Below are positions 19,487 to 59,653 of a DNA stretch of 64,000 nucleotides, piece by piece (the stretch's first letter is position 1; the number at the start of each line of letters is the position of its first letter). A model generated the notes under the pieces. That model ran no database searches and was not told where the DNA came from. It saw only the letters and a list, made by a program, of their open reading frames with translations. A program made the position numbers and the translations under genes. The stretch comes from a virus (Duplodnaviria; Caudoviricetes): IMG/VR virus record IMGVR_UViG_3300037454_001182, positions 15,204 to 79,203 of that record; one strand, written 5' to 3'.

Positions 19487-19972
19487 TTATAATTTATAGA
19501 AGTCAATACCCTTTGCCAACAGTTGGCTCTTCAATTCGTCAAACTGGTGCTTATCTATACTGGTGAACAACAGACCCTCTTTTGTCTGGCCGTGAAACTT
19601 CACATAGGATGGGAAATTCAACTGATTCACGGTCACTGCGTCCTGTTGGTAGAATACGAAATCATGGTCACGCTCAAACATCACCAAAGCCTCTGGATGG
19701 GCTTGCTTGCTCTTGCAATACTCCCTCAGAATCCTCTCACGTTCTGCAACTCCGGCCATCGTACTGAAGAAAGCACTGACGAACATTCTCTTTACTTCTG
19801 CCTCATTTGCTTCTGGGTAGTCAGTCTTGACAATCAACTGACAATTACCTGCATAGTTTGACCAACTTATTTCAAAGTTATAGTAGGTGGCACCCTCCAT
19901 AACTCGTTTGATGCTCTTGCAATCTTGCTCACAGAGATTGCCTAACTCGTTTCCCAAATAGACTTCAATCAT
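19487..19972 (-). CDS. Hypothetical protein with degenerate C-terminal MutS domain I-like region
   Basis: REYCKSKQAHPEALVMFERDHDFVFYQQDAVTV parallels the MutS-I pattern QYxxxKxxHPDAxLxFRxGDFYExFxEDA; AGAGCA-ATG start. Confidence 0.55.
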   Translation of the reverse strand: MIEVYLGNELGNLCEQDCKSIKRVMEGATYYNFEISWSNYAGNCQLIVKTDYPEANEAEVKRMFVSAFFSTMAGVAERERILREYCKSKQAHPEALVMFERDHDFVFYQQDAVTVNQLNFPSYVKFHGQTKEGLLFTSIDKHQFDELKSQLLAKGIDFYKL

Positions 19973-20023
19973 TGCTCTTGATATTAGCGGAGGTGAGCGG
20001 TGAGGCCCACCTCCAGATGAATA

Positions 20024-20746
20024 CTATGCCATAATCTCGATGTCGATACTCTCAACCCTTGCAATCTGGGTGGCTCCCTCGCGGTCAAAGAGATACTTCT
20101 GGAATGCGTCTTTGATTCTCATCACGCTCACACAGCAATACTCTTCACCAACAGGGAAACCATCATGTGAGAGGTCGAAGTTACCAGGCTTCCTGTACGA
20201 CTTGATGCCGTTGGCGTTTGCGGTGGCTCTGGCATCGTTCCAACGCTCATAACCATCACCGTCATTCTTGACGAACATTCTGGTGTTGCGGATGGTATGG
20301 AAATCACTCTCTTGCTTGAAGTACTCCCGAATCACACAGAACTTGTTGATGATGGAGTGTTCGCTGTCAATGAGCGACTGGATGTGTTCGCGGCTGATGT
20401 GTCCAGTCTCAGCGGTCACATCAAAAGTGTACGGCTCTTCGGTGGCAGGTTCAGTCTCAGCCTCATCATTGGTAGGCTCTGGCTCATCAACAGGCTCATT
20501 CTCTGGTTCTGGCTCGATGGCCTCTGGCTCGTTCACTGGTTCCAGATTCTCTTCCGGCTCGATGGCTACCGTGGCATTGGCCTTGGTGCGGTAGTATGAG
20601 ATAAGGGCGGTGAGGCTTCTCTTGCCCTTAACCTCTTCGTACTCCTTGAAGAGTTCAGCGTTAGCACTCAGAGCGGCCTCAAAGGTCATGCTCTCAAAGT
20701 TCACCTTAATCTGGTTCTTAATCTCGTTTACATCTAACTGTTTCAT
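20024..20746 (-). CDS. Hypothetical protein with acidic Pro/Glu linker
   Basis: 240-aa ORF, AGAGCA-ATG start, own promoter upstream. Confidence 0.7.
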   Translation of the reverse strand: MKQLDVNEIKNQIKVNFESMTFEAALSANAELFKEYEEVKGKRSLTALISYYRTKANATVAIEPEENLEPVNEPEAIEPEPENEPVDEPEPTNDEAETEPATEEPYTFDVTAETGHISREHIQSLIDSEHSIINKFCVIREYFKQESDFHTIRNTRMFVKNDGDGYERWNDARATANANGIKSYRKPGNFDLSHDGFPVGEEYCCVSVMRIKDAFQKYLFDREGATQIARVESIDIEIMA

Positions 20747-20790
20747 TGCTCTTAAATTTTAATTGTGAATAATGTTTTTTGTTTAATTTC

Positions 20791-20870
20791 TATACTGCAA
20801 AGATAGCGTATTTTTCTGAATTATCAAAACGGAAACTCGTTTATTTTCAGCGACTTAACTCTGTTTAACG
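20791..20870 (-). promoter_or_regulatory. ~80-bp repeated promoter element, copy 1
   Basis: Minus strand TTTG-ataattcagaaaaatacgc-TATCTTTG (Bacteroidetes -33/-7 consensus) plus conserved upstream block. Confidence 0.8.
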
Positions 20871-21106
20871 TCTTGGCGTTCTCTATATGAGCCTTTCTTT
20901 GTCTCGGCCTTGATTTCGCCATAACTCGCATTACTCTCCCAGACTTTCTCACCATCGTTTATCTCGGTGACGAAATATCCAGTATCACCCAGGAACCCGA
21001 CTATTTTCAAAGTCCAGTAGTAGTGACCATGGGAATAAACATCGTAACTCTTGCCGATATAGGACTGCATGATGTTTCTCATTCTTGTGCTGATACCCTT
21101 TTTCAT
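20855..21106 (-). CDS. Hypothetical protein
   Basis: 83 aa, AGAGCA-ATG start. Confidence 0.65.
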   Translation of the reverse strand: MKKGISTRMRNIMQSYIGKSYDVYSHGHYYWTLKIVGFLGDTGYFVTEINDGEKVWESNASYGEIKAETKKGSYRERQDVKQS

Positions 21107-21126
21107 TGCTCTTACTTGTTTGATGG

Positions 21127-21435
21127 TTACAACTCGATTTCCTCAAATCCGAAACTGTCACAGTAGTAGAACTTATCTTCCAGTTTGATGATGTCAGAGA
21201 CGGAAAGGCTGTGACCCTTGAATCCCTCTGGCTTTCTACCGATATTGAACTGATGGAAGATTTGCTCCAGTGTAACATACACATCGTTGGCCTCTTCAAT
21301 CTCACCCTCCCATACCTTTTCGTACAGGTCTTTGGTAATCTTCAATCCCAGATGCTCGACCATTTCAAGACTGGAAAACATGATGTAGCGAGAATTTTCT
21401 GCATCGTCTCTTACTTGTAAAATCTGATATTTCAT
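21127..21435 (-). CDS. YodL-like domain protein
   Basis: LEQIFHQFNIGRKPEGFKGHSLSVSDII...YYCDSFGF is the YodL family signature. Confidence 0.8.
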   Translation of the reverse strand: MKYQILQVRDDAENSRYIMFSSLEMVEHLGLKITKDLYEKVWEGEIEEANDVYVTLEQIFHQFNIGRKPEGFKGHSLSVSDIIKLEDKFYYCDSFGFEEIEL

Positions 21436-21470
21436 TGCTCTTTTTATTTAATTGGTTATCTTTTATTATT

Positions 21471-21560
21471 GTACTACAAAGATAGCGTTTTTTTCTGAAA
21501 GTACAAAACGAAAAACCAATTATTTTCAGCCAGTTATGCCTCAACCAACCATTTTTAACG
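21471..21560 (-). promoter_or_regulatory. Repeated promoter element, copy 2
   Basis: TACTACAAAGATAGCGTTTTTTTCTGAAAGTACAAAACG...TTTTTAAC on the plus strand. Confidence 0.75.
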
Positions 21561-21580
21561 TATCAAGAAAAAAGACAGCC

Positions 21581-21808: not shown

Positions 21809-21825
21809 GATGCAAAGGTACGGAT

Positions 21826-26621: not shown

Positions 26622-26642
26622 AAATTAACTATAAAAATCAAT

Positions 26643-26697: not shown

Positions 26698-26940
26698 TTA
26701 TGCCCTCTGGAACTCTCTATGTCGCGCTAATTGGCTACGATAGCCCTCCATGCAACGCTTCATGTAACTTGTGGCTGCATACCTCGTTGGATTGGTCATG
26801 TACGGCTCTGTCTTATACAGGTTGATTTCCCTGCGACACGTCCACATCTGCTGAATGAGCCATACTTCTGTTTGCGTCTTTTGTCGTTTCATTGCTCTTC
26901 GATTTAGATGTATCAAGATAGCCGATAATACGACCATCAT
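26698..26940 (-). CDS. Hypothetical protein
   Basis: 80-aa ORF. Confidence 0.45.
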   Translation of the reverse strand: MMVVLSAILIHLNRRAMKRQKTQTEVWLIQQMWTCRREINLYKTEPYMTNPTRYAATSYMKRCMEGYRSQLARHREFQRA

Positions 26941-26958: not shown

Positions 26959-27600
26959 TCATGCCCATAACTTCACGGCTGTATCGTAATTCTTCTGGGC
27001 TTCATTAACGGCTTTCTTGGCATAGGTCAGAGAGTAGGCATGTTCGCGCTCAATCTTACCCTCTTTCATGGCTTGATGGTATGCCTTGGCCTTTTCCAGA
27101 ATCTCAGCGTAATACTGTATGCTCTCTGGCATTGACAGGTTGATGTCCTCAGTGTGACGTTCCCAACCCTCGGCCTTGTCACGGTAGGCTTCTGCCTTAT
27201 CCATTTCAGCGGCCATCTTTCCAGTGTTGCGCCATGCGTCCTCAATGGCTTTGCGGTGTCTGCGCTCAGAATGATGTCCGACTTTGATAGGCTCTCCCAG
27301 AGAGAGGAAAGCTGCATCTTTGTTGGACTTGTCGAAATACTCACCTGCGCGTCTGTCTGCATTGGCGGCTGCTTGCTCGTACTTCTCGACTTTCCGTTTG
27401 GCTCTCTCCTGGCAGTTGTAGCCATCAGCCCGAACGATGGAGTAGTAGAAAAATCCACCACGTTCTGCCACGAGGTTGTAAACGATGTGTTCATTCTCTT
27501 TGCCGTACTTTGTAGTTACGGTGATGATTTCGCCTCTTTCGTGCCTCTCTTCGCATTTTGCTACAAATACGTTGGGGCAATACTTTTGATACGTGTTCAT
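26959..27600 (-). CDS. DUF3560-like protein
   Basis: GEPIKVGHHSERRHRK motif; AGAGCA-ATG start. Confidence 0.8.
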   Translation of the reverse strand: MNTYQKYCPNVFVAKCEERHERGEIITVTTKYGKENEHIVYNLVAERGGFFYYSIVRADGYNCQERAKRKVEKYEQAAANADRRAGEYFDKSNKDAAFLSLGEPIKVGHHSERRHRKAIEDAWRNTGKMAAEMDKAEAYRDKAEGWERHTEDINLSMPESIQYYAEILEKAKAYHQAMKEGKIEREHAYSLTYAKKAVNEAQKNYDTAVKLWA

Positions 27601-27623
27601 TGCTCTTACTTTTTATAGGGTTA

Positions 27624-27926
27624 CTACTTAATTGTCACTTTCACTGGTTGAACGTCCTCGATGATGTCATTTACCCATGTGATAGCCTTGATAGGCTCCA
27701 ATGTCTCGCGGTAGTTCTCAGTATCATACTTGAACTCGATTTCATACAGGGTGCCCGGCTCTCCCTCAAAGAGTATCGACCAGTAGCCATCACTCCAACA
27801 CTCATTGCTGATTTCGTAGGCTTGATTCTTCTGGCTGTTGCTCAACTCGTTCAGACAGTCATTGATAATCGCTGTTCTCTTAACGGTCTCACCGTTACTC
27901 TGGAACTGAATCTTAATCGTTTTCAT
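27624..27926 (-). CDS. Hypothetical protein
   Basis: Start moved to AGAGCA-ATG at 27926 (MKTIKIQ). Confidence 0.65.
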   Translation of the reverse strand: MKTIKIQFQSNGETVKRTAIINDCLNELSNSQKNQAYEISNECWSDGYWSILFEGEPGTLYEIEFKYDTENYRETLEPIKAITWVNDIIEDVQPVKVTIK

Positions 27927-27950
27927 TGCTCTTATTCTTAATTGATTTCT

Positions 27951-28028
27951 ATACTGCAAAGATAACCATTTTTTCTGAATTATCAAAACCGATTGAACTC
28001 TATTTTTAACCGACCAACTCTTTTTAAC
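27951..28028 (-). promoter_or_regulatory. Repeated promoter element, copy 3
   Basis: TATACTGCAAAGATAACC..TTCTGAATTATCAAAAC...CCAACTCTTTTTAAC. Confidence 0.78.
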
Positions 28029-28900: not shown

Positions 28901-29254
28901 TCATGCCTCCCCATATAAGCGGTTAATGAACTTTTCCAGATAGCACTCATCTTTCATTTCAGACAATGGCTTCGGATTGTGGCAGATGTCTCTCTCAACA
29001 CCGCAACCCCAACTATTCTTCAAGTTCTGGAGTTCGGTAAGGCTGAAATACCCATACTCACATTCTCCATACCCATTGACTACGATTCCAAAAGCCAGAT
29101 TCTCTTTTAGGTCGGCTTCCAACACATACCAGGTATGCGCCCCACCAGTGAGGAAATACTTAACTACGCAAATGGCATTTTGCTTTTTGTCGCTCTGGGA
29201 GTACAGCGGAAATTTCGCTAACTCCTTTTCTACTTGTTTCGTGACTAATTTCAT
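28901..29254 (-). CDS. DUF2958-like protein
   Basis: VVKYFLTGGAHTWYVLE...EYGYFSLTEL...VERD motif. Confidence 0.75.
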   Translation of the reverse strand: MKLVTKQVEKELAKFPLYSQSDKKQNAICVVKYFLTGGAHTWYVLEADLKENLAFGIVVNGYGECEYGYFSLTELQNLKNSWGCGVERDICHNPKPLSEMKDECYLEKFINRLYGEA

Positions 29255-29276
29255 TGCTCTTACTGCTATGTGGTTA

Positions 29277-29561
29277 TTACTTTACTTCCAACTCATCCAG
29301 AGAGATTTCTTCAAAACTTCCTGGCCAGTTGTAGATGGGCGTTGTGTCAAATGCTCCATACTCTACTATCTCTAACTCATCGCCCTGTATCTCCCAGATG
29401 TCACCATTCTCATTACCATCACTATCCTCATACATGATGGCAATGTTAGTGAAATTGGCAGTCTCTTCAACATAGAGACCTGTGAACTCTAAACCATTTT
29501 CTTTGAGGTTGGCAATCAGTTCCTCGACCTTTGCTTTCAGTTGTGCTGTAATTGATTTCAT
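29277..29561 (-). CDS. Acidic hypothetical protein
   Basis: 94 aa, AGAGCA-ATG start. Confidence 0.65.
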   Translation of the reverse strand: MKSITAQLKAKVEELIANLKENGLEFTGLYVEETANFTNIAIMYEDSDGNENGDIWEIQGDELEIVEYGAFDTTPIYNWPGSFEEISLDELEVK

Positions 29562-29597
29562 TGCTCTTGAATTTTGAAAGTTATTATCTTTATTATT

Positions 29598-29676
29598 GTA
29601 CTACAAAGATAGCGTTTTTTTCTGAATTATCAAAACGAATGAACCTTTATTTTCAACTGACCAACTCTTTTTAACT
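29598..29676 (-). promoter_or_regulatory. Repeated promoter element, copy 4
   Basis: Same consensus as the other copies. Confidence 0.78.
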
Positions 29677-30354: not shown

Positions 30355-30873
30355 CTAAAACGATGGGTCAATGTAATGTCTGCGGAAACCGACTGTCAGT
30401 GTCACACTACCGAACTTCTTAGGTTGGCCCTCTTCAACCCATTTGCCATTCTTGCGCAAGGTGAACGTGTGCTTTCCCATATACTCGGCAATGGAATCCA
30501 GAACCTTGTAACGGCCACCGTAGTAGTCTAAACATTCAGTCTCATTTTCCTGTACTATGATTTTCTTTGGACTTACAACCTCTACGATGGTCATAGCCCT
30601 GTGGTCACTCCAGAGGTTCATTGTGGCACCGAGGCCGACTTTCAATTCTGGATTGGATTCAGCAAACACCTCGGCTGCAACCTCCGGCCAATCTTCACGC
30701 TTCCATCTGGTCAGAAACTCATTCATAAAGTAGTCGAAGTCATAGCCATTCAACTTGCACACATCGGCATCATGGCGCATTTCTTCCAACTGGCTTTCTG
30801 TCAGTTCAATGGTGTAGGCTTTGCCATCCCACATCTTTGTTTTGGTCTTTACAACCGTTTCTTTTGTTTCCAT
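30355..30873 (-). CDS. Hypothetical protein
   Basis: 172 aa, AGAGCA-ATG start. Confidence 0.7.
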   Translation of the reverse strand: METKETVVKTKTKMWDGKAYTIELTESQLEEMRHDADVCKLNGYDFDYFMNEFLTRWKREDWPEVAAEVFAESNPELKVGLGATMNLWSDHRAMTIVEVVSPKKIIVQENETECLDYYGGRYKVLDSIAEYMGKHTFTLRKNGKWVEEGQPKKFGSVTLTVGFRRHYIDPSF

Positions 30874-30884
30874 TGCTCTTTGAT

Positions 30885-31220: not shown

Positions 31221-31487
31221 TTAGAGTGAATCAATATATAAGTTCTTAACCTCTCCACTGGCAATCATTGAGGCAACTTTCTCATTGATTGCGTCCAGTC
31301 CGATGATGTCCTGGCTGTCATGCTGCTCAACCTTGATAAGATGAAACTGCCTGTCTGATTTCAGCAACTCAATCACGCATTCACCGTTGACGGTCTCAAT
31401 GACTATCTGCTGCTTCCAAGGGTCATACTGGTAAGCCATCTTATCGTACTTCTTTTGAAGTGACTTTGTTTCTTTTGTCTGTCTCAT
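31221..31487 (-). CDS. Hypothetical protein
   Basis: 88 aa, AGAGCA-ATG start. Confidence 0.65.
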   Translation of the reverse strand: MRQTKETKSLQKKYDKMAYQYDPWKQQIVIETVNGECVIELLKSDRQFHLIKVEQHDSQDIIGLDAINEKVASMIASGEVKNLYIDSL

Positions 31488-31508
31488 TGCTCTTATAGTT
31501 TGAATTTC

Positions 31509-31588
31509 TATACTGCAAAGATAGCGATTTTTTCTGAATTATCAAAACGGAAAACTCTTTATTTTCGCCTTGCCAACTCTTTTTAACC
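31509..31588 (-). promoter_or_regulatory. Repeated promoter element, copy 5
   Basis: Same consensus as the other copies. Confidence 0.8.
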
Positions 31589-31591: not shown

Positions 31592-31663
31592 AAAAAAGGT
31601 GTGTCCTAACTTCACAGTCGAGACACACTAAGAGCAATGAAATCGTCAAAAGAAACGATTTCG
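31592..31663 (-). ncRNA. Candidate sRNA-2 carrying AUUUCAUUGCUCUUAGUGUGU (antisense to AGAGCA-AUG starts)
   Basis: -7 box TAATTTTG at 31668-31675; 5' hairpin GAAATCGT/ACGATTTC; unpaired seed; terminator GTGTGTC/GACACAC plus T6. Confidence 0.65.
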
Positions 31664-31705
31664 GCTGCAAAATTACAAAATAATATTCAAACCATCTAAT
31701 TTTTG

Positions 31706-34355: not shown

Positions 34356-34892
34356 CTATTGAAAGAAATCATCAAAGAGGCCCAACTGTCGCGGCTTCAA
34401 CGCCTCGAACTCTTCTCTGAAGAACTGGTCTTTGGTGCGCCCCATCATCTTACCCTTGCGAGTGTGAACATCGTAGGTGTATTCTGGAATGGGAATCGGG
34501 TACCGTCTGGCATCTTCGAGCCATGCGTCCACATTCTCCAGTCGGTTCTGGTCATAGACAAGATTCTGCAAGTGGTCTGCATCACGGCTTTTGCGACACT
34601 CACACAGGAGCAGAACGGCCTTACTGACGAACACCCTGCCTTTCGGCACAGGTTGTTTCTTGTTTACTAACTCATGGCCCTGCCATAACGCCTCAATCTC
34701 TTGGGTGATGAGGCCGTAGCAGTCTTCCGCGCTTATCGTGTATAGTCTCTTCCAGACATAATCACGGTAGCCTGAATGCCATAATTCCAGGGCGAAATAC
34801 CCTGCTGTTCGTGCGTCTGCTCTACGAATGGCCTTTTGCATGGCTGATGATACTTCGTAGAAATCGTAACCTTTAACTGTTCTTAATTCCAT
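34356..34892 (-). CDS. RarA/MgsA C-terminal-like domain protein
   Basis: YEVSSAMQKAIRR...RLYTISAEDC motif; no AAA+ core; C-terminal QLGLF. Confidence 0.7.
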   Translation of the reverse strand: MELRTVKGYDFYEVSSAMQKAIRRADARTAGYFALELWHSGYRDYVWKRLYTISAEDCYGLITQEIEALWQGHELVNKKQPVPKGRVFVSKAVLLLCECRKSRDADHLQNLVYDQNRLENVDAWLEDARRYPIPIPEYTYDVHTRKGKMMGRTKDQFFREEFEALKPRQLGLFDDFFQ

Positions 34893-34987
34893 TGCTCTTA
34901 CTTTTGGTTTTGTTATTCTTGTTTTCTAACAGTAAAGTTAGTCATTTTTAGCGAGATATGCAAATTTTCAAACTTCTTTTTCATCGT

Positions 34988-39876: not shown

Positions 39877-39889
39877 TGCTCTTTTGTAT

Positions 39890-40458: not shown

Positions 40459-40506
40459 TGCTCTTTGGTATTTGGTGGGGTGGTGGTTAGCCACCCCGTG
40501 ACCTTG

Positions 40507-40917: not shown

Positions 40918-40953
40918 TGCTCTTTGATTTTAATTGTTATTATTTCATCTTTT

Positions 40954-41032
40954 GTACTACAAAGATAGCGTTTTTTTCTGAAATATCAAAACCGAATAGC
41001 AATTATTTTCAGCCGACCAACTCTTTTTAACT
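40954..41032 (-). promoter_or_regulatory. Repeated promoter element, copy 6
   Basis: Same consensus as the other copies. Confidence 0.78.
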
Positions 41033-45134: not shown

Positions 45135-45719
45135 CTACTCGCAGAAAATGAAGTCCATATATTCAGCAAGGAACTGTTGGCCCGCGTACTCCGCTAACGC
45201 TCTATTTTTGAAGCAGAGGCGACCGCCGCCGTACGTGCTCGAGAACGACGAAGCGTTACTCGTGAGCGACAAAGCGACACCCGCATTCGCACTCGCGCTG
45301 TTGTACGAGCGACCGAGAACGCGGATTCCCTTTTTGTCCTCTTCATCCATACCGTCCAGTTCCTCCTGTGTGTAGAACACGAACCAAGGGAAATAGCGGT
45401 ATTCATCCTCAGTAAAATTCGGCTTCCATCCCTCATTGAGAGCTTCAACAATAGTCTTTAGTTTGATGTAGGCCACCTCATCCTTTTCGAGAAAACAACG
45501 GCTGTTGTCAATCGGTGAAGAATAGCGCAGGTCGTGGAAGTTTACAGGCTGAATACCGAGGACTTTGCAAGCATCCTCATACGTCTTTACCCTCTCTGTG
45601 ATAGGCAGCAGGGAATCCAGACCATCAACCTGTACGTCATGCTTACGCATGAGTTCCATCATTTCTTTTGCAAACACTTGTGCCTTATCATCTGGCACGA
45701 TCAGTTTTAACTCTTTCAT
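45135..45719 (-). CDS. Hypothetical protein with DGR-type variable-repeat-like C-terminus
   Basis: GRSYNSASANAGVALSLTSNASSFSSTYGGGRLCF, encoded by alternating TCG/GCG/ACG and NNC/NNT codons. Confidence 0.75.
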   Translation of the reverse strand: MKELKLIVPDDKAQVFAKEMMELMRKHDVQVDGLDSLLPITERVKTYEDACKVLGIQPVNFHDLRYSSPIDNSRCFLEKDEVAYIKLKTIVEALNEGWKPNFTEDEYRYFPWFVFYTQEELDGMDEEDKKGIRVLGRSYNSASANAGVALSLTSNASSFSSTYGGGRLCFKNRALAEYAGQQFLAEYMDFIFCE

Positions 45720-45766
45720 TGCTCTATGAGTATTTAATATACGCAGGGCGGTTACTCCTGCAAATC

Positions 45767-46018
45767 CTATAAATCAATATCAAAGCCCATATCAGACAGG
45801 GCAAGGATAACGGCTACTGGCAATTCATAGATACCATCGTAATCTATCACAGTGTTGCCATCAGTGACATAGTTTCCACAAACGTAGGTATCATCGTCAT
45901 TGTCTTTCTCCCATTCCCAACTGTGGGAACTCGGAGTGATTGCTACCCACACATCATCATCATCAAAATAGAAGTGATGGATGCCGTCATTATCAACGTT
46001 TCTTCTGGTGATATTCAT
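45767..46018 (-). CDS. Acidic hypothetical protein
   Basis: 83 aa, AGAGCA-ATG start. Confidence 0.65.
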   Translation of the reverse strand: MNITRRNVDNDGIHHFYFDDDDVWVAITPSSHSWEWEKDNDDDTYVCGNYVTDGNTVIDYDGIYELPVAVILALSDMGFDIDL

Positions 46019-46030
46019 TGCTCTTATATT

Positions 46031-46264
46031 TTATAGTTCTACTGGTATGGATTTGCCTGTTAACCTTTCAAGTGCGACTAAGACATTCCATCCCAAATTT
46101 GTCTGTATTTGCTGCATCTTTTCGTGATGCTCCATTGCCTTATTACGGTAGGTTTCACTCTCTTGCCTTTTGGCAAAGTAGTAGTTGAAACTCTTAACGT
46201 GGTCGATGTATTCATCAAGAACTTCTTGATTTACATTTACTGTCACAATTACTGGAAAACTCAT
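46031..46264 (-). CDS. Hypothetical protein
   Basis: 77 aa, AGAGCA-ATG start. Confidence 0.65.
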   Translation of the reverse strand: MSFPVIVTVNVNQEVLDEYIDHVKSFNYYFAKRQESETYRNKAMEHHEKMQQIQTNLGWNVLVALERLTGKSIPVEL

Positions 46265-46276
46265 TGCTCTTTGGTT

Positions 46277-46672: not shown

Positions 46673-47065
46673 TTATTGTTCATTCATTCTTGCTTGCCCA
46701 TACTCTCTACTCCATTGCTTTGTGACTTTCTCGCGGTCAATTCCAGTGAGTGCCTGGCTGAAACGCTCAGTGATGAAAGCACCGTAAAGAATGGTATTCT
46801 TATTCAACTTCATGCCGTTAGGGCAAAGACCGTTGGCATATCTACCATATTGCATATAGATGTTACGGTCAGCAGATGGAATGTAGTTTACTCTCTGACC
46901 ATCCTTTTTCATTGCCACTTCCCAATGGGAGCCGGTATAGGTCTTACTGCTCATCCAGTTATCTTGCGTATAACTGTCAGATTCAGATACGAGCCTTGCG
47001 ACAATCTCATAATGTCCGCAATCGCTCTGCAAGTAGATGTACCTTGTTTTGATATTCGATTTCAT
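46673..47065 (-). CDS. Hypothetical protein
   Basis: 130 aa, AGAGCA-ATG start with a 17-nt match to sRNA-2. Confidence 0.7.
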   Translation of the reverse strand: MKSNIKTRYIYLQSDCGHYEIVARLVSESDSYTQDNWMSSKTYTGSHWEVAMKKDGQRVNYIPSADRNIYMQYGRYANGLCPNGMKLNKNTILYGAFITERFSQALTGIDREKVTKQWSREYGQARMNEQ

Positions 47066-47086
47066 TGCTCTTATAGTTTGAATTTC

Positions 47087-47166
47087 TATACTGCAAAGAT
47101 AGCGATTTTTTCTGAATTATCAAAACGGAATGACTATTATTTTTGCCTTGCCAACTCTTTTTAACT
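47087..47166 (-). promoter_or_regulatory. Repeated promoter element, copy 7
   Basis: Nearly identical to copy 5. Confidence 0.8.
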
Positions 47167-49462: not shown

Positions 49463-50290
49463 TTAATCAAACAGGGTTTTATCCATGTCGTAATTGAATA
49501 CCAGTACCTCAGTCTTTTTTCTGGCATGGCCTTTGAAGTTGGCTACTTTCATGGCCATTGTGATAGCCTTGAAGTTCCAACCGTTCTTTGCTATATGCTC
49601 CATGAGGGTGTCACTCATGAACTGGCTCAAAAGGAATTTGCCTTTGATGGTGGCCAACCTTGTGAGTAGTTCCTCCAGATTCTCAAAGGTGAATCCACGG
49701 TAATGCTTTTGCACACAACCGGGATATGGTGGGTCAAGATAGAAAAACGTCTCTGGGGTGTCTCGCTGCTCGATGCACAGAAGCGCATCACGGCAACTTA
49801 TTTGGGTGTCTTTGATTCTCTCATGCAGTGCCTCGGTAAAGTTCTCTCTGGAATGTCTCATCACCCTGCCAGTGTGCGACCCTGCGGAACCATTACACCA
49901 CTTCCAACCGCCATCAGGCGAACCACTGAAAGAAAAGTTGGTCAGCATCCAGACAGCCCACGCCCTTTCAAGTGGTGTGGATTCCTGGCCCTGCCATATT
50001 GCCCTCGCCCTCTTCCATTCTGATTCACAGCAGAGGGTGTGCTGCACCTTGTCAAACAGCGCGTCAAAATTGTTCTGGAGTTGCAGGTAGAACGTCACCA
50101 GATTATCGTTGATGTCATTGATGGCTTCCAGATATGACGGACGCTTGGCAAAGAACACGGCACCGCCACCGAAATAAGGCTCACAATATATCCTGTGAGA
50201 CGGTATCATCGGCAATATGGTTTTGACAAGTTGCTGCTTGCCGCCATAGTAGGTGATGGGTGTCTTTACTCGTTTCTTTTGATTATCCAT
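49463..50290 (-). CDS. Dam-family (alpha class) adenine methyltransferase
   Basis: YYGGKQ, EPYFGGGAV, YLDPPY. Confidence 0.9.
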   Translation of the reverse strand: MDNQKKRVKTPITYYGGKQQLVKTILPMIPSHRIYCEPYFGGGAVFFAKRPSYLEAINDINDNLVTFYLQLQNNFDALFDKVQHTLCCESEWKRARAIWQGQESTPLERAWAVWMLTNFSFSGSPDGGWKWCNGSAGSHTGRVMRHSRENFTEALHERIKDTQISCRDALLCIEQRDTPETFFYLDPPYPGCVQKHYRGFTFENLEELLTRLATIKGKFLLSQFMSDTLMEHIAKNGWNFKAITMAMKVANFKGHARKKTEVLVFNYDMDKTLFD

Positions 50291-50295
50291 TGCTC

Positions 50296-51105
50296 TTATT
50301 TATCGTATTTGTCTATGTACTCTTTCATTTCCATGCCGTACTTTTTCTTGAACAGTTTGCCAAACTGCGCCTTGGTGTTATCATCGGCCATCGGGTCATT
50401 GAGTAGGGATTTGGCAAGCCTCACTATGTCTGCCGGATTCTCCTTTGGCTGAGGCTTCGGCTTTCTCTTTAGTTTGCCAATAGGTTGCTCCCACGGCTTG
50501 GGTCGAATCTCGCCATACTCTCTCATGCAGTAATCTTCCCACGTCTCTTTTGGCCTCTTGGCCTCTTCCTCTCTCTGGCGTTCCCTCTCTTCCTGTTCGT
50601 GCTTGTCATAGGCTGCTGACCTCTCTTTGAGGAAATCACGCAAAGAGGTAGTGATAACAAGAGGGTCAACAGAACCGTAGAATCTTCCATATCTACCAGA
50701 CTTGAACCGATGGAAGAATAGCATCAATTCAGTAACAGACAAATAACTGAACTCTGTGGCTATCACGATGGCACATTCTTTGAGTTGGTTGTCTGTCAGT
50801 TTGTCACGGCATCCGCAAAACTCTGACAGGTTATAGAGTTGAGGCACAAGCCACATGGCCGCTGTCTGCTCTCCGTAGGTTGTATTCAGCAATCCGAGTG
50901 TAGGCGCACCACCGAAGAAACATATATCAGTATGGGCGCATACTTTAAGCTGCAAGTCTGGATTGAAGGTAACGAGAAAGTTTTCACGCGCACCGTAGGC
51001 TTGCACTATCTCATTACTCTTCTGCCGCAAGGCTGGCAATAACACTTGCTGCTCCTTGCGCTCTTTCGGCTGCTGTTGTAGAAGTTCGACTATTGACGTT
51101 ATCAT
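50296..51105 (-). CDS. Replication-associated protein (DUF6633-like, possible helicase loader)
   Basis: LSVTELMLFFHRFKSGRYGRFYGSVDP motif; follows the initiator; AGAGCA-ATG at 51105 overlaps the initiator's 3' end. Confidence 0.7.
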   Translation of the reverse strand: MITSIVELLQQQPKERKEQQVLLPALRQKSNEIVQAYGARENFLVTFNPDLQLKVCAHTDICFFGGAPTLGLLNTTYGEQTAAMWLVPQLYNLSEFCGCRDKLTDNQLKECAIVIATEFSYLSVTELMLFFHRFKSGRYGRFYGSVDPLVITTSLRDFLKERSAAYDKHEQEERERQREEEAKRPKETWEDYCMREYGEIRPKPWEQPIGKLKRKPKPQPKENPADIVRLAKSLLNDPMADDNTKAQFGKLFKKKYGMEMKEYIDKYDK

Positions 51106-51724
51106 TGCTCTTACCTTTATATGATTTATCATTATTGGCCCATCTTTGTAACCTCTTTTCGAGTACCCAGGTAGGCTCTTGCTCCCATTTCATTTTACTG
51201 CCGGACTTGTTTGTTTCCGACCAGTAATCATAGAACGCCCTCACCATTTCCTTGCCGTATGTCTGAACGTATGGAACCAGAGACTTATAGAACTCTTTCA
51301 TCCGCTTCTCAGTTTCGGCCTTTATCTCTTCTTTGGTTTTCTTGGGCTTGGATTGTTCTGGGGTGTTGTTTGCTTGTGCGTTGTCTGTTGGTTGACTGTC
51401 ATTGTCTGAGGTGTCGCACTGATATTCCTCATACTTACAGACGGTTATGATGGTAAACTTGTTTGTTGAATACCGTTCTATCTCACCTGTCTCTTCCAGT
51501 CTGGCTAAACAAGTTCTGAGGGTCTGGACTGAAAGCCCTGTCTTAATTCGGAGAGATTCATAACTCGTAACCAACTGCCCCCTGTTGACTGGTGTGTTAT
51601 GCCACCTCTTGTTAGACACAGACGCATTCAGCAACAAATGTAGAAACAGATGCACCATTTCCGATTTGTCGTACCATTCCCAATCAAGGAACTTCCGATG
51701 TATCTTAATCCAACCGTCTGACAT
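51014..51724 (-). CDS. Phage replication initiator (lambda O-like replisome organiser)
   Basis: GWIKIHRK..DWEWY, RGQLVTS, wHTH, TIITVCKYEEYQ. Confidence 0.85.
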   Translation of the reverse strand: MSDGWIKIHRKFLDWEWYDKSEMVHLFLHLLLNASVSNKRWHNTPVNRGQLVTSYESLRIKTGLSVQTLRTCLARLEETGEIERYSTNKFTIITVCKYEEYQCDTSDNDSQPTDNAQANNTPEQSKPKKTKEEIKAETEKRMKEFYKSLVPYVQTYGKEMVRAFYDYWSETNKSGSKMKWEQEPTWVLEKRLQRWANNDKSYKGKSNDNVNSRTSTTAAERAQGAASVIASLAAEE

Positions 51725-53542: not shown

Positions 53543-54721
53543 TTAGTGGAATAGTACGTTTGTTAGTTGCTTTCCTCTGGAATAGACACACCATTTCTGG
53601 GTACTGCCGTATTCCATTCCAATCTTCAAGTCGGCCACGTTTCCGAACCGCTTATAACTGCCTCCCAAATCGACAATCCAACCATCCTTGCCCTTGAACG
53701 GACGGATGGCACGGCCTACCATCTGATAGTACAGTGCGAGTGACTTTGTGGGTCTGCCCAGGATAACGGTGTCAAGTTCTGGATAATCGAAGCCAGTAGT
53801 CAGAGTGCCGACATTGGCAACCACCTTTATTCTTCCGGCCTTGAAATCTTCCAGAATGGCCTCGCGTTCTTTCTTTGGTGTCTCTCCTGTCACGATGGAT
53901 GAATTGATGCCTACTGACTTCAACCTCCCTACAAGCGTATTAGCCTCATCAATGAATCTGGTGAACACCAACACCCCTTTTCTGGGAATGCCATTCTTCG
54001 GGTGCAATACCCGAACCGTAGTAGATGCCAACTGGTCTTTGAATCCCACTCGCTCATACTCCAACCTCAGTGACTTCTCATCATAGTCTGCGCCTGTTGT
54101 GTTCGGTGCAACTCGGCTCATGTCAAGTTTGGTGCAATCGAAGTACTGAAGGTTTGCGAGATACCCCTTTCCCAAAAGGTCGGAAATCTGACAGTAATAC
54201 AGGACATCGGAGAAAATGCGCGGTCTCGTTCTGGTGAGGAACTTCAAAGTTGAGCCGCCTTGGTATGAGCAAAGTCTGTAAGGGGTTGCTGTCAGTCCGA
54301 CAACTCTTCTGTCTGCTGCTTCGAGGAATTTCTTGTATTGCCCGGCCTTGCTATTGACATAGTGGCACTCATCAATCATTACGTTTTTGAAGTGAGCAAA
54401 ATCTTCCATGTGATTCATCACACTGCCGATGGTGGCAAACGTGATTCTATTGATGTCCTTATAGCCAACAGAAGCGGAATAGATGGAGGCATCCCAACAG
54501 CCATACGATTGCAGCTTTGCGAAGTTCTGTTCCAGAATCTCTTTTGACGGTTGGAACACCAACAGAGGCCCATCCAACTTGCTTGCGATGTCTGCAATGA
54601 CAAGGCTCTTACCTGCACCTGTCGGCAGAATCAATAAACCGTTATTGGCTTTCTTATCTTGGAATGCCCTAACAGCCGCAATACTGGCGTTTCTTTGATA
54701 GTCTCGTAAGACGTATTTCAT
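53543..54721 (-). CDS. Superfamily II (DEAD/DEAH-like) helicase
   Basis: LRDYQ, PTGAGKS, DECH, GLTATP, QMVGRAIR; start moved to AGAGCA-ATG at 54721. Confidence 0.92.
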   Translation of the reverse strand: MKYVLRDYQRNASIAAVRAFQDKKANNGLLILPTGAGKSLVIADIASKLDGPLLVFQPSKEILEQNFAKLQSYGCWDASIYSASVGYKDINRITFATIGSVMNHMEDFAHFKNVMIDECHYVNSKAGQYKKFLEAADRRVVGLTATPYRLCSYQGGSTLKFLTRTRPRIFSDVLYYCQISDLLGKGYLANLQYFDCTKLDMSRVAPNTTGADYDEKSLRLEYERVGFKDQLASTTVRVLHPKNGIPRKGVLVFTRFIDEANTLVGRLKSVGINSSIVTGETPKKEREAILEDFKAGRIKVVANVGTLTTGFDYPELDTVILGRPTKSLALYYQMVGRAIRPFKGKDGWIVDLGGSYKRFGNVADLKIGMEYGSTQKWCVYSRGKQLTNVLFH

Positions 54722-54738
54722 TGCTCTTAGTGTGTGGT

Positions 54739-56945: not shown

Positions 56946-56949
56946 CTTC

Positions 56950-57912
56950 TCAGTCTTTGATTGTGAATGTTAAACCCATTGAAGTGAGATAATCCTCCAG
57001 AGCCTTAAACTGCTCATCGTTGGCGTTTATCTCATAGTAGCGAGGATAGACAGTCGCTTTCTTGGCAACTCCTGCAGACTGTCCCAGAATGTCGGCAAAG
57101 GCATCTGCGGCATCAGCCTCGGATTCGTCAATATCATGGTGACTTGACTCTTCTTTCTCTGGCTCCTTGTCCTCTGGCTTGCTCTCTGTGTCAATAGGCA
57201 CGGATGGGGTCTCTGGTGCTGTCACTCTTTCCTCGGCTTCCTTGGCCTTGGCTGCGGCTTCACGCTGTTCTTTGAGTTGGTTCGCATAGCGGACGGTCTC
57301 TTGCAGGTTGAAATTCTCCTTATAGCGGACTGCCAGAACATCGTAATCCTCAGCAAAGGACTTCAATGTTTCGAGGTCTGACGTGATAGTGGCTATTCTC
57401 TCTCGGATTTCTTTCTCCACAGCCTTTAGTGACGTGGTTTTGTTCAGCCACTTGTCATTCCAGATGGTAGAGAGACGGATGCCCAACTCTTCCAGTCCTA
57501 ACTCTTCGGCCAGATGTTCAACGGCCTCTCGTTTCTCAGCCTTGGCACGTTCCTCATCTTCCTTGATTACGGCATCAATCTTGGCCACGGCCTCCTTGAT
57601 GAGTTTGACCGTCTCAGCAACAACTTCCTTGAACTCTCCGAACGGTGCCATGAACTCACGTTCAAACTCAATGCGCTTGTCATTGAGGGTCTTTGACGCT
57701 TTATTCAGCAAAGCCTTGTCAGCCTTGGCCTTGGCAATATCATCCGTAGAGTAGTTGGAAATGTCATACCTTGGGAGTGCCTGTTGAACCAACTCCCGAA
57801 TCTGCTTTGCGTTGGTTGTGAGGCTACCAATGGTTTTCTCACTCACGACCAGTTCTAATTGACTGGCCTCCAGTTCCACAACAGGAATAGGCATATTGTT
57901 TTCTTGATTCAT
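56950..57912 (-). CDS. DUF1351-like coiled-coil protein
   Basis: AKADKALLNK..K.LNDKRIE...PF..FK motif, in the recombination module. Confidence 0.75.
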   Translation of the reverse strand: MNQENNMPIPVVELEASQLELVVSEKTIGSLTTNAKQIRELVQQALPRYDISNYSTDDIAKAKADKALLNKASKTLNDKRIEFEREFMAPFGEFKEVVAETVKLIKEAVAKIDAVIKEDEERAKAEKREAVEHLAEELGLEELGIRLSTIWNDKWLNKTTSLKAVEKEIRERIATITSDLETLKSFAEDYDVLAVRYKENFNLQETVRYANQLKEQREAAAKAKEAEERVTAPETPSVPIDTESKPEDKEPEKEESSHHDIDESEADAADAFADILGQSAGVAKKATVYPRYYEINANDEQFKALEDYLTSMGLTFTIKD

Positions 57913-58676
57913 CTTAAATTGAAAATTTTGGTGTCTGTGATTAACTCACGATTTTGTTTAAGGAATCTGATAAAGTCCTCACAATGTTCTGTGAGCCGTG
58001 GAATGTCACGGTCTGGGACGAATGAGTAACTTTCAGTGTAGGTGCGGTAGTATGTCTTACCCAACTCCACGATGTTATACTCAAAGTCTGGAACATTGCA
58101 ACCGTTCTTCATCAGCGCGTAAGGATAGACGATATGCTGCCAGTGGTCTTTGTAGTTCCCGACTGCATACTGCCCTGTGGTCTTTAGGTCATGGGTGCAG
58201 AACGGTAGAACATAGTCAATGTAACCGTAGAGCAACACATCACCGAAAATCGTAGGCAGAACAGCTTGAATGTACTGCTGCGGCAATCCACCTTGATAAT
58301 AGTCGGCTACCTCCCTGCAAAGAGGCAGAGGGAAATAGAATGTGCGACTGTTATAGGTGGCGTTCAGTCCAGTAACCGAACCATCATTGCCACGAACTTT
58401 CTGCACCTTTACTTTGTCGGAGTTCTTATGCAGTATCATACAGTCGATAACCTCATTGAACGCTGTGCCCCTGTCTGCCTTTTCGCTGTCGAATGGCACA
58501 CGGTTAATCCTGTCAATGAGTGACTGGAATTGCTGCTGCCTAAATTCCTCTGGGGTATGGGGCGGCTCTTCCGAGAAACCCCAATACTTTTCCCAGATGG
58601 TATCACTGTTGAGATACTGCGAGAAAGCATCTAACAGTGTGGCATAGAATTTGAACTCCAACTTAGGCTGCTGCAT
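57909..58676 (-). CDS. PD-(D/E)XK-type exonuclease-like protein
   Basis: GYIDY...DLKTT...QHIVY motif, next to the Sak4-like ATPase. Confidence 0.65.
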   Translation of the reverse strand: MQQPKLEFKFYATLLDAFSQYLNSDTIWEKYWGFSEEPPHTPEEFRQQQFQSLIDRINRVPFDSEKADRGTAFNEVIDCMILHKNSDKVKVQKVRGNDGSVTGLNATYNSRTFYFPLPLCREVADYYQGGLPQQYIQAVLPTIFGDVLLYGYIDYVLPFCTHDLKTTGQYAVGNYKDHWQHIVYPYALMKNGCNVPDFEYNIVELGKTYYRTYTESYSFVPDRDIPRLTEHCEDFIRFLKQNRELITDTKIFNLR

Positions 58677-59613
58677 CTTCGTACTGCTTTGTGTCTTTGT
58701 TGTACTTCAAACCGAGGGCCTTAACACGCTTACTGAAGATGTCTCTGGCGAAGAGAATCACGCTGTTGCCGAGGTTGGCATAATCCTTGATGTGTTCGAG
58801 GAAATGATTTGCGCCCACGGCATCAGTCATTAACTCACAGGCATTCTTGATTTCTTCCAGAGCGGCTTGATATTCCTGTGCGGCCTTTTCCTTGACGGAA
58901 ATCATAGACTGGTACTTGGAAATAATCTGCTTCTCGATGAAATCATTGGCTCCTGTGGGCTGTCCGTTCTGGTTGAGAATATTCTGGATGAACATCACTC
59001 CTGGCAGTTGGCAGGTGTTCTTACCGTCATTGCGAGAAGTGGGGTCGAATGTGATAGAGCGTTTCTGCACTCCGTTCTCATTCTTCATTTCCAGATAGCC
59101 GAGCAAATCCAACTCGGTAACGATGGAGTTGTAGGACTTCTCACGCAAGGCAGGTACAAACACCGTATCATCACCCTCTTTGCGAGAATCGCGGTGGGCA
59201 ACAAAGATGATGTGCTTCCCTAATCCAGACAGGGCGTTTACAAACCACTTGAAATCATTGTTGATAGTTCCCCAGTCCTGTACGCGAGGATTCCGGCCAC
59301 CACAACGGTAAGCGATGATGAAATCCATCATCTTGCCGATGGTGTCAACAACGATAGTTCCAAAGGGTGCCAGTTCGGCAGCTTCAGTGGTGAGCAGTGT
59401 CACGATCTCCTGCCAGTTGTTAATCTGGACGATACCAACATTATCTCCCAGATGCGCGTTGTTTACTCGCTTGACACCGTTGTCGAAGTCAAGCAACAGT
59501 GGATTGGGCGAAGAGAGCGCGAGGGTAGTCTTACCCATACCTGCTTGCCCATAGACCATCATCTTTACATTCTTCTGGATGGTCAACTCGTTACTTTTTT
59601 TAATCAATCCCAT
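58663..59613 (-). CDS. Sak4-like AAA ATPase (recombinase)
   Basis: YGQAGMGKT, LLLDFDNG, IVVDT; start moved to AGAGCA-ATG at 59613. Confidence 0.85.
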   Translation of the reverse strand: MGLIKKSNELTIQKNVKMMVYGQAGMGKTTLALSSPNPLLLDFDNGVKRVNNAHLGDNVGIVQINNWQEIVTLLTTEAAELAPFGTIVVDTIGKMMDFIIAYRCGGRNPRVQDWGTINNDFKWFVNALSGLGKHIIFVAHRDSRKEGDDTVFVPALREKSYNSIVTELDLLGYLEMKNENGVQKRSITFDPTSRNDGKNTCQLPGVMFIQNILNQNGQPTGANDFIEKQIISKYQSMISVKEKAAQEYQAALEEIKNACELMTDAVGANHFLEHIKDYANLGNSVILFARDIFSKRVKALGLKYNKDTKQYEDAAA

Positions 59614-59653
59614 TGCTCTTAGTGTGATTAAAATTGTGAAACATAAAAAATAA

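Follow-up and report, generated by a model that had tools for sequence, protein, structure and literature searches.

A start-codon tag on non-structural genes of a gut Bacteroidota phage and its candidate antisense small RNA readers

Many genes of this gut Bacteroidota phage open with one identical leader, AGAGCA-ATG, which raises the question of what reads it. The 64-kb window (the whole stretch of DNA analysed, 64,000 nucleotides) contains 25 exact copies of the tag AGAGCAATG; 23 are on the minus (gene) strand and two are on the plus strand. Chance expectation is 1.10 +/- 1.06 copies, with a maximum of five, in 100 dinucleotide shuffles of the window. Every one of the 23 gene-strand copies adjoins an ATG that opens an ORF, 64-392 aa in length (Table 1). 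The whole 79,203-bp phage genome contains 24 minus-strand and two plus-strand copies; the 24th minus-strand copy is located beyond the window, within a 481-aa gene. The original prediction had listed 22 genes with this leader; all 22 of its ATG positions are right, and one start, at 26892, had been missed.

Tagged genes make up approximately a quarter of the genes of the phage, and all are non-structural. Between 19037 and 60202, 23 of 76 called genes are tagged, compared with none of 29 in the head-tail module (up to 19036; Fisher p = 3e-4). The earlier claim that virion structural genes lack the tag therefore holds, and a count of starts versus elsewhere in the phage, proposed at the same time, places all gene-strand copies in the window at ORF starts and none at the late head-tail genes. 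Within the window, no tag is present at head, tail, portal (25099-26562) or MuF (21826-23547) starts. A 503-aa gene at 31706-33217 is also untagged; neither PHROGs nor Pfam provides a terminase name for it. Just two starts differ from the tag by one mismatch. Both read AGAACA-ATG; one is at 42463 and the other is at the capsid gene (17830), where this variant had been reported. With 23 exact and only two one-mismatch starts, the distribution of the tag is all-or-none and not graded, as expected of a pairing seed.

The tag is an exact 9- to 11-mer; its extended form is U-A-AGAGCA-AUG. In six ORFs (59613, 54721, 51105, 40458, 27926 and 26892) the tag is downstream of the longest-ORF start; this fits the original suggestion that it corrects ORF-track starts. 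Seven of the tagged genes have a class I promoter cassette in front of them, and these cassettes are nearly identical.

Table 1. Predicted sRNAs, promoter elements and tagged genes in the window
Feature	Position	Strand	Remark
sRNA2 (type B), ~72 nt	31592..31663	-	ends inferred; structure z = -5.3
sRNA1 (type A), ~107 nt, head-operon leader	19060..19166	-	ends inferred; structure z = -3.0
-7 box TAATTTTG, sRNA2 promoter	31668..31675	-	motif position
-7 box TACCTTTG, sRNA1 promoter (class II)	19171..19178	-	3' of repeated upstream element TTATTTGTTATTCAAATAAAT
Class I promoter cassette (TTTTG, ~19 nt, TATCTTTG)	47094..47125	-	28 nt before tagged ATG
Class I promoter cassette	40960..40991	-	
Class I promoter cassette	31516..31547	-	
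Class I promoter cassette	29604..29635	-	
Class I promoter cassette	27957..27988	-	
Class I promoter cassette	21477..21508	-	
Class I promoter cassette	20798..20829	-	
Tag AGAGCAATG, Sak4-like annealing protein (316 aa)	59611..59619	-	16-nt contiguous match to sRNA2
Tag, DNA helicase (392 aa)	54719..54727	-	21-nt contiguous match to sRNA2
Tag, 269-aa gene	51103..51111	-	ORF start
Tag, DNA methyltransferase (275 aa)	50288..50296	-	second 13-nt match, to sRNA2 5' hairpin, 5 nt past ATG codon
Tag, 130-aa gene	47063..47071	-	class I promoter in front
Tag, 77-aa gene	46262..46270	-	ORF start
Tag, 83-aa gene	46016..46024	-	ORF start
Tag, 194-aa gene	45717..45725	-	ORF start
Tag, 136-aa gene	40915..40923	-	class I promoter in front
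Tag, 111-aa gene	40456..40464	-	ORF start
Tag, 139-aa gene	39874..39882	-	~20 nt near-continuous pairing with sRNA2
Tag, 178-aa gene	34890..34898	-	ORF start
Tag, 88-aa gene	31485..31493	-	class I promoter in front
Tag, 172-aa gene	30871..30879	-	second 11-nt match to sRNA2
Tag, 94-aa gene	29559..29567	-	class I promoter in front
Tag, 117-aa gene	29252..29260	-	ORF start
Tag, 100-aa gene	27924..27932	-	class I promoter in front
Tag, 213-aa gene (phrog_17519)	27598..27606	-	tag kept in 17/20 diverged orthologue contexts
Tag, 64-aa gene	26890..26898	-	ORF start; absent from the original list
Tag, 102-aa gene	21433..21441	-	class I promoter in front
Tag, 83-aa gene	21104..21112	-	ORF start
Tag, 240-aa gene	20744..20752	-	class I promoter in front
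Tag, 161-aa gene	19970..19978	-	ORF start

Both plus-strand copies of the tag are located in the two non-coding gaps, where they are the seeds (CAUUGCUCUUA) of two predicted sRNAs. Read on the gene strand, each seed is flanked by a TAnnTTTG box and a hairpin with a U-run; a promoter and a terminator are predicted for both RNAs and are conserved in relatives. sRNA2 is found just after the 503-aa gene, with its antisense 9-mer at 31631-31639. Its predicted layout is a 5' hairpin, the seed in an unpaired stretch, and a terminator hairpin capped by a GUGA loop and followed by U6. A TAnnTTTG box immediately precedes the 5' hairpin in almost every type B homologue displayed. sRNA1 has its antisense 9-mer at 19113-19121 and is predicted to form a P1 hairpin, a P2 helix with the seed CAUUGCUCUUAC in its loop, and a terminator with U5. 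The type B seed has a predicted unpaired probability of 0.76, compared with 0.36 for the rest of the RNA; the sRNA1 seed is partly paired, with five bases predicted to be mostly paired.

The stems of both RNAs covary across more than 100 related phages. Of the 10 positions around the GUGA loop of the type B terminator, all but a 1x1 position (34/47) keep canonical pairing in 45-47 of the 47 unique homologues, and several show 3-4 pair types. Type A homologues share three helices, with compensatory changes at 7 of 20 pairs and the seed unpaired inside P2. Neither RNA matches an Rfam covariance model at the gathering threshold or at E <= 1.

The seed is an 11-nt exact complement of the initiation region of its targets. 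Contiguous pairing beyond the 9-mer amounts to 100 nt summed over the 23 targets, compared with 33 +/- 6.4 nt under the null (5000 draws, maximum 54 nt). Seven matches of at least 10 nt to the sRNA2 5' hairpin are found; four of these, all collinear with the seed, start no more than 10 nt past the A of a tagged ATG. Among type B RNAs, lineage-specific 5' modules mirror class I leaders at their 5' ends, with unrelated sequences, over 18 nt in three leaders, 13-17 nt in eight and 10-14 nt in others. These lineage-specific matches lack collinearity with the seed and would therefore need either a knotted geometry or a second RNA molecule to pair.

A motif search in related phages, also proposed in the original prediction, finds the tag kept in orthologues and co-occurring with seed RNA. 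Such phages and prophages are found in Prevotella, Parabacteroides, Bacteroidaceae and Paludibacteraceae, and on more than 100 IMG/VR contigs; some are integrated in isolate genomes, for example on a 395-kb contig of Prevotella vespertina. Among orthologues of gene 27600 (61-85% aa identity), AAGAGCAATG is kept in 17 of 20 distinct contexts and positions -25 to -10 are scrambled. The same comparison finds no conserved upstream block at capsid, 503-aa gene or portal starts. Judged from these alignments, the tag is under selection. Loci anchored on the 503-aa gene have a mean of 4.1 tagged starts when seed RNA is present (n = 86) and 0.55 when it is absent (n = 31), although these counts are not phylogenetically independent. 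The two exceptions carry a seed RNA elsewhere, as does one further phage (L155). Across relatives, tag and seed occur jointly and are lost jointly.

Variants of the seed are also found. In two independent lineages with the seed CAUUGCUUU (U-seed), AAAGCAATG is present at 6/6 and 3/7 gene-strand ARAGCAATG sites. In pooled loci, nearly all of which have the C-seed, it accounts for approximately 10% of such sites; some C-seed phages keep a few mismatching AAAGCAATG starts. One RNA (L162) has both seeds in tandem.

The tag is probably the address of a trans-antisense sRNA regulon, presumably used for translational shut-off. Since the two putative sRNAs carry its exact antisense, the gene set is most likely switched together by RNA pairing at the start codon. 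This agrees with the original proposal of a regulon address read by two sRNAs: the only two reverse copies are seeds of conserved, structured RNAs with promoters and terminators, tag and seed co-occur and are lost together, pairing continues past the 9-mer, AAAGCAATG starts tend to go with U-seeds, and neither host genomes nor 16S rRNA offer an alternative reader. AGAGCA-AUG would be a fixed RNA address marking where translation begins on 23 early, replication and accessory genes, which would be transcribed from the seven repeated host-type class I promoters and their operons. The sRNAs, with the antisense sequence in an unpaired stretch or loop, would pair across the start codons of tagged mRNAs. 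The duplex would extend over -8 to +3, and in some targets over 16-24 nt, which should keep the 30S subunit from binding and so turn off all tagged genes at once. Antisense pairing over a start codon is the textbook arrangement for an initiation block.

sRNA1, which would form a terminated head-operon leader, has the promoter type and the upstream element of the morphogenesis promoters; consequently, switch-off would most plausibly occur when those promoters fire. We infer expression of the two RNAs, in vivo pairing and a repressive effect, the last solely from the position of the duplex. Two RNAs would have to titrate many mRNAs, which is a difficulty for this reading.

The tag might instead act mainly in cis, as a private Kozak-like initiation signal recognised by ribosomes, by a host factor or by an RNA-binding protein of the phage; the antisense copies would then be secondary (e.g. 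titrating decoys) or unrelated. This is unlikely, even though the tag adjoins the AUG within an A-rich leader typical of Bacteroidia and persists in some clades whose type A seed is mutated or missing. Bacteroidota ribosomes ignore Shine-Dalgarno sequences, and 16S rRNA of two host species contains no complement of at least 6 nt to the tag context, which rules against Shine-Dalgarno-type pairing. In five host genomes with related prophages, tag matches cluster in the prophage and the remainder is at chance level; the tag is thus not equally frequent in the host, and host genes do not use it.

The Kozak-like context of Bacteroidia (A at -3, A at -6 and an A-rich leader; Baez et al. 2019, PMC6847099) is, like the tag, a start without a Shine-Dalgarno sequence. 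The tag shares with it A at -6 and an A-rich stretch at -14 to -11. In contrast to that context, in which A at -3 is a positive determinant, the tag has G at -3 in 23/23 starts; it is also one fixed word, whereas the context is a bias at certain positions, and host genomes are at background. The Kozak-like context was rejected as the identity of the tag on these grounds. Phage T4 has protein readers of shared initiation regions: the RegB endoribonuclease and the RegA translational repressor provide coordinated post-transcriptional shut-off via an address common to early mRNA initiation regions (PMC3014915). That address is a GGAG Shine-Dalgarno or a loosely defined site; here, the tag is exact and the inferred reader is RNA. 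A protein reader would leave unexplained why complementarity extends beyond the tag, why the RNAs have second modules, why seed and target show apparent covariation and why the tag disappears where seed RNA is absent. The all-or-none distribution also speaks against a cis-acting signal.

Somewhat less likely still, the sRNAs pair with the tag with an outcome other than simple repression: RNase cleavage guided by the duplex, processing polycistronic mRNAs at every gene start, stabilisation or activation of the mRNAs, or prophage-state immunity against leaky or superinfecting related phages. C4 (P1/P7) and CI RNA (P4) are trans-acting immunity antisense RNAs whose loops pair with repeated targets on the phage's own transcripts, masking the ribosome-binding site or causing termination. 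Relatives of this phage are integrated as prophages in isolate genomes, and a seed identical across many phages would give cross-immunity. However, the seed is frozen while immunity determinants usually diversify; the promoter type of sRNA1 is that of morphogenesis genes, which fits a lytic-cycle timer; and the start-codon pairing geometry is that of an initiation block. C4 and CI are processed from the one operon that contains their two targets, whereas the present tag marks 23 targets spread over many operons, and the predicted sRNAs have their own promoters and terminators and no Rfam match.

It is very improbable that the 9-mer has no role of its own and marks only a recombination joint of gene modules or what is left of promoter-leader-start cassettes after duplication. 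Class I cassettes do precede tagged genes, and the tagged genes are mobile accessory genes with patchily distributed orthologues. However, 16 of 23 tagged starts have no such cassette immediately upstream (several come right after the stop codon of a preceding gene), the promoter-to-tag leaders vary in sequence and in length (28-51 nt), the tag is exact where its flanks are saturated with changes, and it is strictly strand- and ATG-locked.

By analogy, the closest published counterpart of the tag is the Start-Associated Sequence (SAS) of Cluster K mycobacteriophages (Pope et al. 2011, PMC3203893), for which the authors left open an RNA or a protein reader. Both are short repeats immediately 5' of many start codons, exclusively of non-structural genes; both have a single orientation with rare reverse copies (here 23 versus 2), are essentially absent from the host genome and are conserved ahead of unrelated genes (across subclusters for SAS). 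SAS is a 13-mer, GGGATAGGAGCCC, which contains a Shine-Dalgarno core and is located 3-7 bp before the start. The tag differs in being an unrelated word with zero spacing that includes the AUG and has no rRNA complement. It is also found in a phylum with Shine-Dalgarno-ignoring ribosomes, and has a candidate reader, the two sRNAs, with comparative support. Unlike in Cluster K, no ESAS-like inverted repeats were seen here.

Motifs common to the starts of phage non-structural genes have been on record since 2011; a candidate reader in the same genome turns this descriptive puzzle into an experimentally addressable question. Prevotella vespertina A2879, Prevotella sp. KH2C16 and Parabacteroides faecalis AGMB00274 are cultured strains with related prophages, which makes the sRNA regulon testable. 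In practical terms, the tag would fix start-codon annotation in this phage family, and the seed/tag pair could be an orthogonal knock-down handle in gut Bacteroidota. If true, the regulon would be a rare case of viral trans-acting sRNAs with more than 20 targets on their own genome. A broader view is plausible but tentative: this large family of Bacteroidota phages and prophages may have a private post-transcriptional operating system, in which an exact start-codon tag marks the early and accessory set, modular master sRNAs read it by combining a universal seed with a lineage-specific leader-mirroring module, and one such sRNA, part of the head-operon leader, couples late transcription to translational shut-off. 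Under this broader view, master sRNAs would also supply the missing reader for start-associated sequences of other phages. The case would illustrate gene-class-specific translational control by a phage in a phylum that ignores Shine-Dalgarno sequences.

The tag AGAGCAATG (AGAGCA-ATG) occurs in 25 exact copies in the window; dinucleotide shuffles give an expectation of 1.1 ± 1.06 copies and a maximum of 5. Two copies are on the plus strand and 23 are on the minus strand, which carries nearly all genes. Every minus-strand copy lies at the start of an ORF (64-392 aa). All 22 positions named in the original prediction are recovered by exact search, together with a 23rd tagged start at 26892. The complete 79,203-bp genome, of which the window is bases 15204-79203, contains 24 minus-strand and two plus-strand copies; the 24th AGAGCAATG (genome position 12706, about -2497 in window coordinates) is outside the window within a 481-aa late-region gene. 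It is not a called start; it may have arisen by chance or mark an internal start.

Positions -6 to +3 are invariant over the 23 tagged sites. Upstream, A is found at -7 in 22 sites and T at -8 in 13; leaders are A-rich at -14 to -11, and AAA is the most frequent second codon. Just two starts differ from the tag by one mismatch, both with AGAACA-ATG: the capsid gene, where the variant had already been described, and the start at 42463. The word thus occurs in full or not at all.

The distribution of the tag follows gene class: of the 76 genes in 19037-60202, 23 are tagged, and none of the 29 head-tail module genes is (Fisher p = 3e-4). No tag is found on the portal or MuF genes either, in agreement with the claim that virion structural genes lack it. 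In PHROG and Pfam scans, the tagged genes with names encode a Sak4-like annealing protein, a DNA helicase and a DNA methyltransferase; the remainder are numerous small genes of unknown function. Several methyltransferases are untagged. PHROGs and Pfam provide no name for the 503-aa gene used here as an anchor for comparing related loci.

Features of the window referred to in the text
Feature	Position	Strand	Tag	Remarks
Capsid gene	start 17830		untagged	named from tblastn similarity to major capsid proteins with annotation
Entire head-tail module	at or below 19036		untagged	
sRNA1 (type A)	~19166-19060	gene strand (-)		predicted; ends inferred
MuF	21826-23547	-	untagged	
Portal	25099-26562		untagged	
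sRNA2 (type B)	~31663-31592	gene strand (-)		predicted; ends inferred
503-aa gene	31706-33217		untagged	
LuxR/GerE-type regulator	59654-60202		untagged	

The MuF-like head morphogenesis protein has a further match, to a PHROG with the annotation Bxa ADP-ribosyltransferase (E = 1.7e-64), which suggests a MuF protein with a fused extra, possibly toxin-like, domain. A tRNA gene at 14124-14196 (-) scores 51 bits in Rfam and is reported by ARAGORN as 'tRNA-???' with the four-base anticodon gaaa. This call implies an enlarged anticodon loop; the phage tRNA could resemble a frameshift suppressor or be atypical in another way. Among the plus-strand genes at 60.5-62.5 kb, DUF4236 is the sole Pfam family and no integrase is found.

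Comparison with hosts and with related phages had been proposed as a check on the tag. Megablast of 24 kb against GenBank phages gives no match; protein-level searches identify relatives, all distant, among human faecal phages and Cellulophaga phages. The 503-aa protein has relatives in Bacteroidota genomes, including the isolates Prevotella vespertina A2879, Prevotella sp. KH2C16 and Parabacteroides faecalis AGMB00274, whose related prophages have both the tag and seed RNAs. In five such host genomes, the tag 9-mer clusters in a prophage or phage contig; for example, in a 1.9-Mb genome 25 of 38 matches are on one contig, 23 of them inside ~42 kb. Beyond the prophage or phage contig, the tag is at chance level in all five genomes (~14-35 per 2-4 Mb, near the reversed-pattern control). 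The 16S rRNA of two hosts contains no complement of at least 6 nt to the tag context, and an rRNA-pairing (Shine-Dalgarno-like) model is rejected on this basis. The tag has G at -3, unlike the A at this position which is the positive start determinant in Bacteroidia (PMC6847099). The strand specificity of the tag and its fixed position at ATG lead to the rejection of a DNA-level site, whether for a methylase or as a regulator operator. The tag is neither a host signal nor an rRNA-pairing signal.

Several untagged starts (43201, 42990, 36971, 23838, 45123, 15904 and also 44848) have a strong Shine-Dalgarno-like GGAGG 6-9 nt before the ATG. Bacteroidota ribosomes normally disregard Shine-Dalgarno sequences; these six or seven genes may form a third translational class, or may have been acquired from phages which use such sequences.

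In most of ~160 related IMG/VR loci, AGAGCA is the most frequent 6-mer before ATG, with 3-13 occurrences per 21 kb. For an unbiased test of selection, orthologues were picked by protein similarity and the motif was not used for the choice. Orthologues of gene 27600 (61-85% aa identity) provide 20 distinct start contexts. AAGAGCAATG is exact in 17 of these, one has a single mismatch and two lack the tag; the region from -25 to -10 is scrambled. Orthologues of the capsid, 503-aa, portal and other untagged genes have no conserved block before ATG. A gene that is tagged in one phage can have an untagged orthologue in a second, so assignment of the tag is to individual genes. Judged by these alignments, it is under selection.

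Scanning the window with the Bacteroidota -7 box TAnnTTTG identifies two repeated promoter types. Class I consists of seven near-identical cassettes (TTTTG, ~19 nt, TATCTTTG) located 28-51 nt upstream of a tagged ATG; their leaders vary in sequence and length. The 16 tagged starts without a class I cassette directly upstream include several which immediately follow the stop codon of the preceding gene. Class II consists of TACCTTTG or TAACTTTG preceded by a repeated upstream element, TTATTTGTTATTCAAATAAAT. It precedes the head-operon leader and the genes for the portal, 36386 and 51724, all with untagged starts; the predicted promoters would drive sRNA1 with the head operon, the portal gene and a small number of further untagged genes. 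The upstream repeat adjoins the -7 box at ~19171-19200, 26590-26625, 36414-36450 and 51848-51880, and the LuxR/GerE-type regulator is a candidate for binding it.

Both plus-strand tag copies sit in this region's two non-coding gaps, where two predicted RNAs carry the antisense copy, or seed. Read on the gene strand, sRNA2 follows a -7 box (TAATTTTG) and consists of a 5' hairpin of 9 bp, unpaired CAUUGCUCUUA, a GUGA-loop terminator hairpin and U6; its predicted fold has -27.3 kcal/mol (z = -5.3). sRNA1 lies behind a class II promoter and consists of hairpin P1, then helix P2 (CAGAAC/GUUCUG) with CAUUGCUCUUAC in the loop, and a terminator with U5; it ends ~25 nt upstream of the first head-operon gene (z = -3.0). 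Neither matches any Rfam family at the gathering threshold or at E ≤ 1. By pattern scan, the seed-plus-terminator signature is present in at least 108 IMG/VR contigs, chance matches among them, and both RNA contexts recur in relatives despite very different stem sequences.

In type B, 45-47 of 47 unique sequences have canonical pairs at ten symmetric positions about the GUGA loop, except that at one of these, the 1x1 position, 34 do; several positions have three or four pair types. These pairs were tallied by a loop-anchored count because MAFFT/RNAalifold gave the inner terminator pairs only, the 5' hairpins differing in length. The RNAalifold consensus of type A includes P1, P2 and the terminator, with compensatory changes in 7 of 20 pairs and the seed unpaired within P2. 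The seed has a predicted mean unpaired probability of 0.76 versus 0.36 for the remainder of type B; in the sRNA1 of the window, five of nine seed bases are predicted to be mostly paired. Comparative sequence support for both RNAs is strong.

In the sRNA2 terminator (31601-31630) and its 47 homologues, the tetraloop is invariantly GUGA (GNRA) and the fourth position is a near-invariant G-U pair; the hairpin also has a 1x1 mismatch. It is conserved beyond the needs of a plain terminator and may be a protein-binding or tertiary-contact element. In one large clade (e.g. at L130:12662 and L056:8707, two related phage loci), type A keeps P1 (loop GAAGAU), P2 and the terminator without the seed, while type B retains it. 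From this loss, type A probably serves primarily as the leader of the head operon, and the seed is a module added to it; the leader probably has a separate conserved role, and is perhaps a target of termination/antitermination control of the head operon.

Tag and seed occur together. Among loci anchored on the 503-aa gene, the 86 with a seed RNA behind it have a mean of 4.1 tagged starts versus 0.55 in the 31 without; these counts are not phylogenetically independent, and both states are represented at equal 503-aa protein identity (72-75%). In the two exceptions the seed RNA is located elsewhere. In one phage the RNA copy behind this gene is degenerate; intact RNAs of types A and B are present at other places, and 8 starts are tagged.

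Over the 23 targets, contiguous complementarity past the 9-mer totals 100 nt, using the better of the two RNAs for each; flanks of untagged starts give 33 ± 6.4 (maximum 54 in 5000 draws). Individual matches extend to 21 nt (helicase) and 16 nt (Sak4-like). This test was used in place of RNAduplex over whole sRNAs, which is too permissive past the seed. The sRNA2 5' hairpin has seven matches of at least 10 nt in the window, four of which start within the 10 nt that follow the A of a tagged ATG. These second-module matches (genes 50290, 30873, 31487 and 39876) are collinear with the seed and would form bipartite duplexes 20-24 bp long. Type B RNAs of other lineages carry, in their 5' part, the reverse complement of class I leader 5' ends, in sequences unrelated across lineages: 18 nt in three leaders of one phage, 13-17 nt in eight leaders of a Prevotella provirus, and 10-14 nt in three additional lineages. 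These lineage-specific matches are not collinear with the seed, and would therefore require either a knotted geometry or the participation of a second RNA molecule.

In some lineages, seed and tag may also vary together. Where the type B seed is CAUUGCUUU, in two independent lineages, AAAGCAATG occupies 6 of 6 and 3 of 7 gene-strand ARAGCAATG sites; in pooled loci, nearly all C-seed, AAAGCAATG makes up ~10% of ARAGCAATG starts. U pairs with A as well as G. An IMG/VR scan for U-seed RNAs returns mostly chance matches, and three true RNAs from two lineages. In a Paraprevotella-associated relative (L162:3829-3860), a single type B RNA has tandem seeds, CATTGCTTT then CATTGCTCT, corresponding to both start variants, AAAGCAATG and AGAGCAATG. 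As a counter-example, some C-seed phages retain two to four AAAGCAATG starts.

In bacterial sRNAs, pairing within the 30S footprint prevents initiation. The predicted duplex would span at least -8 to +3 of the tagged mRNA, within this footprint, so that initiation would be blocked. Coordinated translational repression of the tagged set would be the most likely outcome of such pairing. sRNA1 and the morphogenesis genes share a predicted promoter type, and the RNA ends in a strong putative terminator before the head operon; consequently, sRNA1, if expressed, should accumulate when the morphogenesis promoters fire. Such accumulation would bring about an early-to-late switch, in a logic analogous to that of T4 RegA/RegB (PMC3014915).

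Alternatively, pairing could have another outcome: guided processing, activation or prophage immunity. If pairing is dropped, the tag would have a protein or the ribosome as reader, or would be a cassette remnant. Co-occurrence, extension and the matching starts of the U-seed lineages favour, in silico, an sRNA reader, one of the two options (the two sRNAs or an RNA-binding protein) in the original reading of the tag as a regulon address.

The closest published parallel to the tag is the Start-Associated Sequences of Cluster K mycobacteriophages, a 13-mer before many genes, non-structural only (PMC3203893). These are found in a single orientation with one reverse copy per genome and are absent from the host; their reader is given as 'either RNA or protein' (PMC3203893). 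The tag is likewise restricted to non-structural genes, has one orientation with rare reverse copies, and is at background level in the host. It differs in sequence, spacing and Shine-Dalgarno content, and in being accompanied by identifiable candidate readers. The C4/CI RNAs of P1/P7/P4 are antisense RNAs with a functional resemblance to sRNA1 and sRNA2; in contrast to these, sRNA1 and sRNA2 have more than 20 predicted targets and no Rfam membership. Comparative support for the tag/sRNA system is unusually complete. Start-associated sequences and antisense sRNA control are known kinds; the tag with its candidate sRNA readers would be a new form of these.
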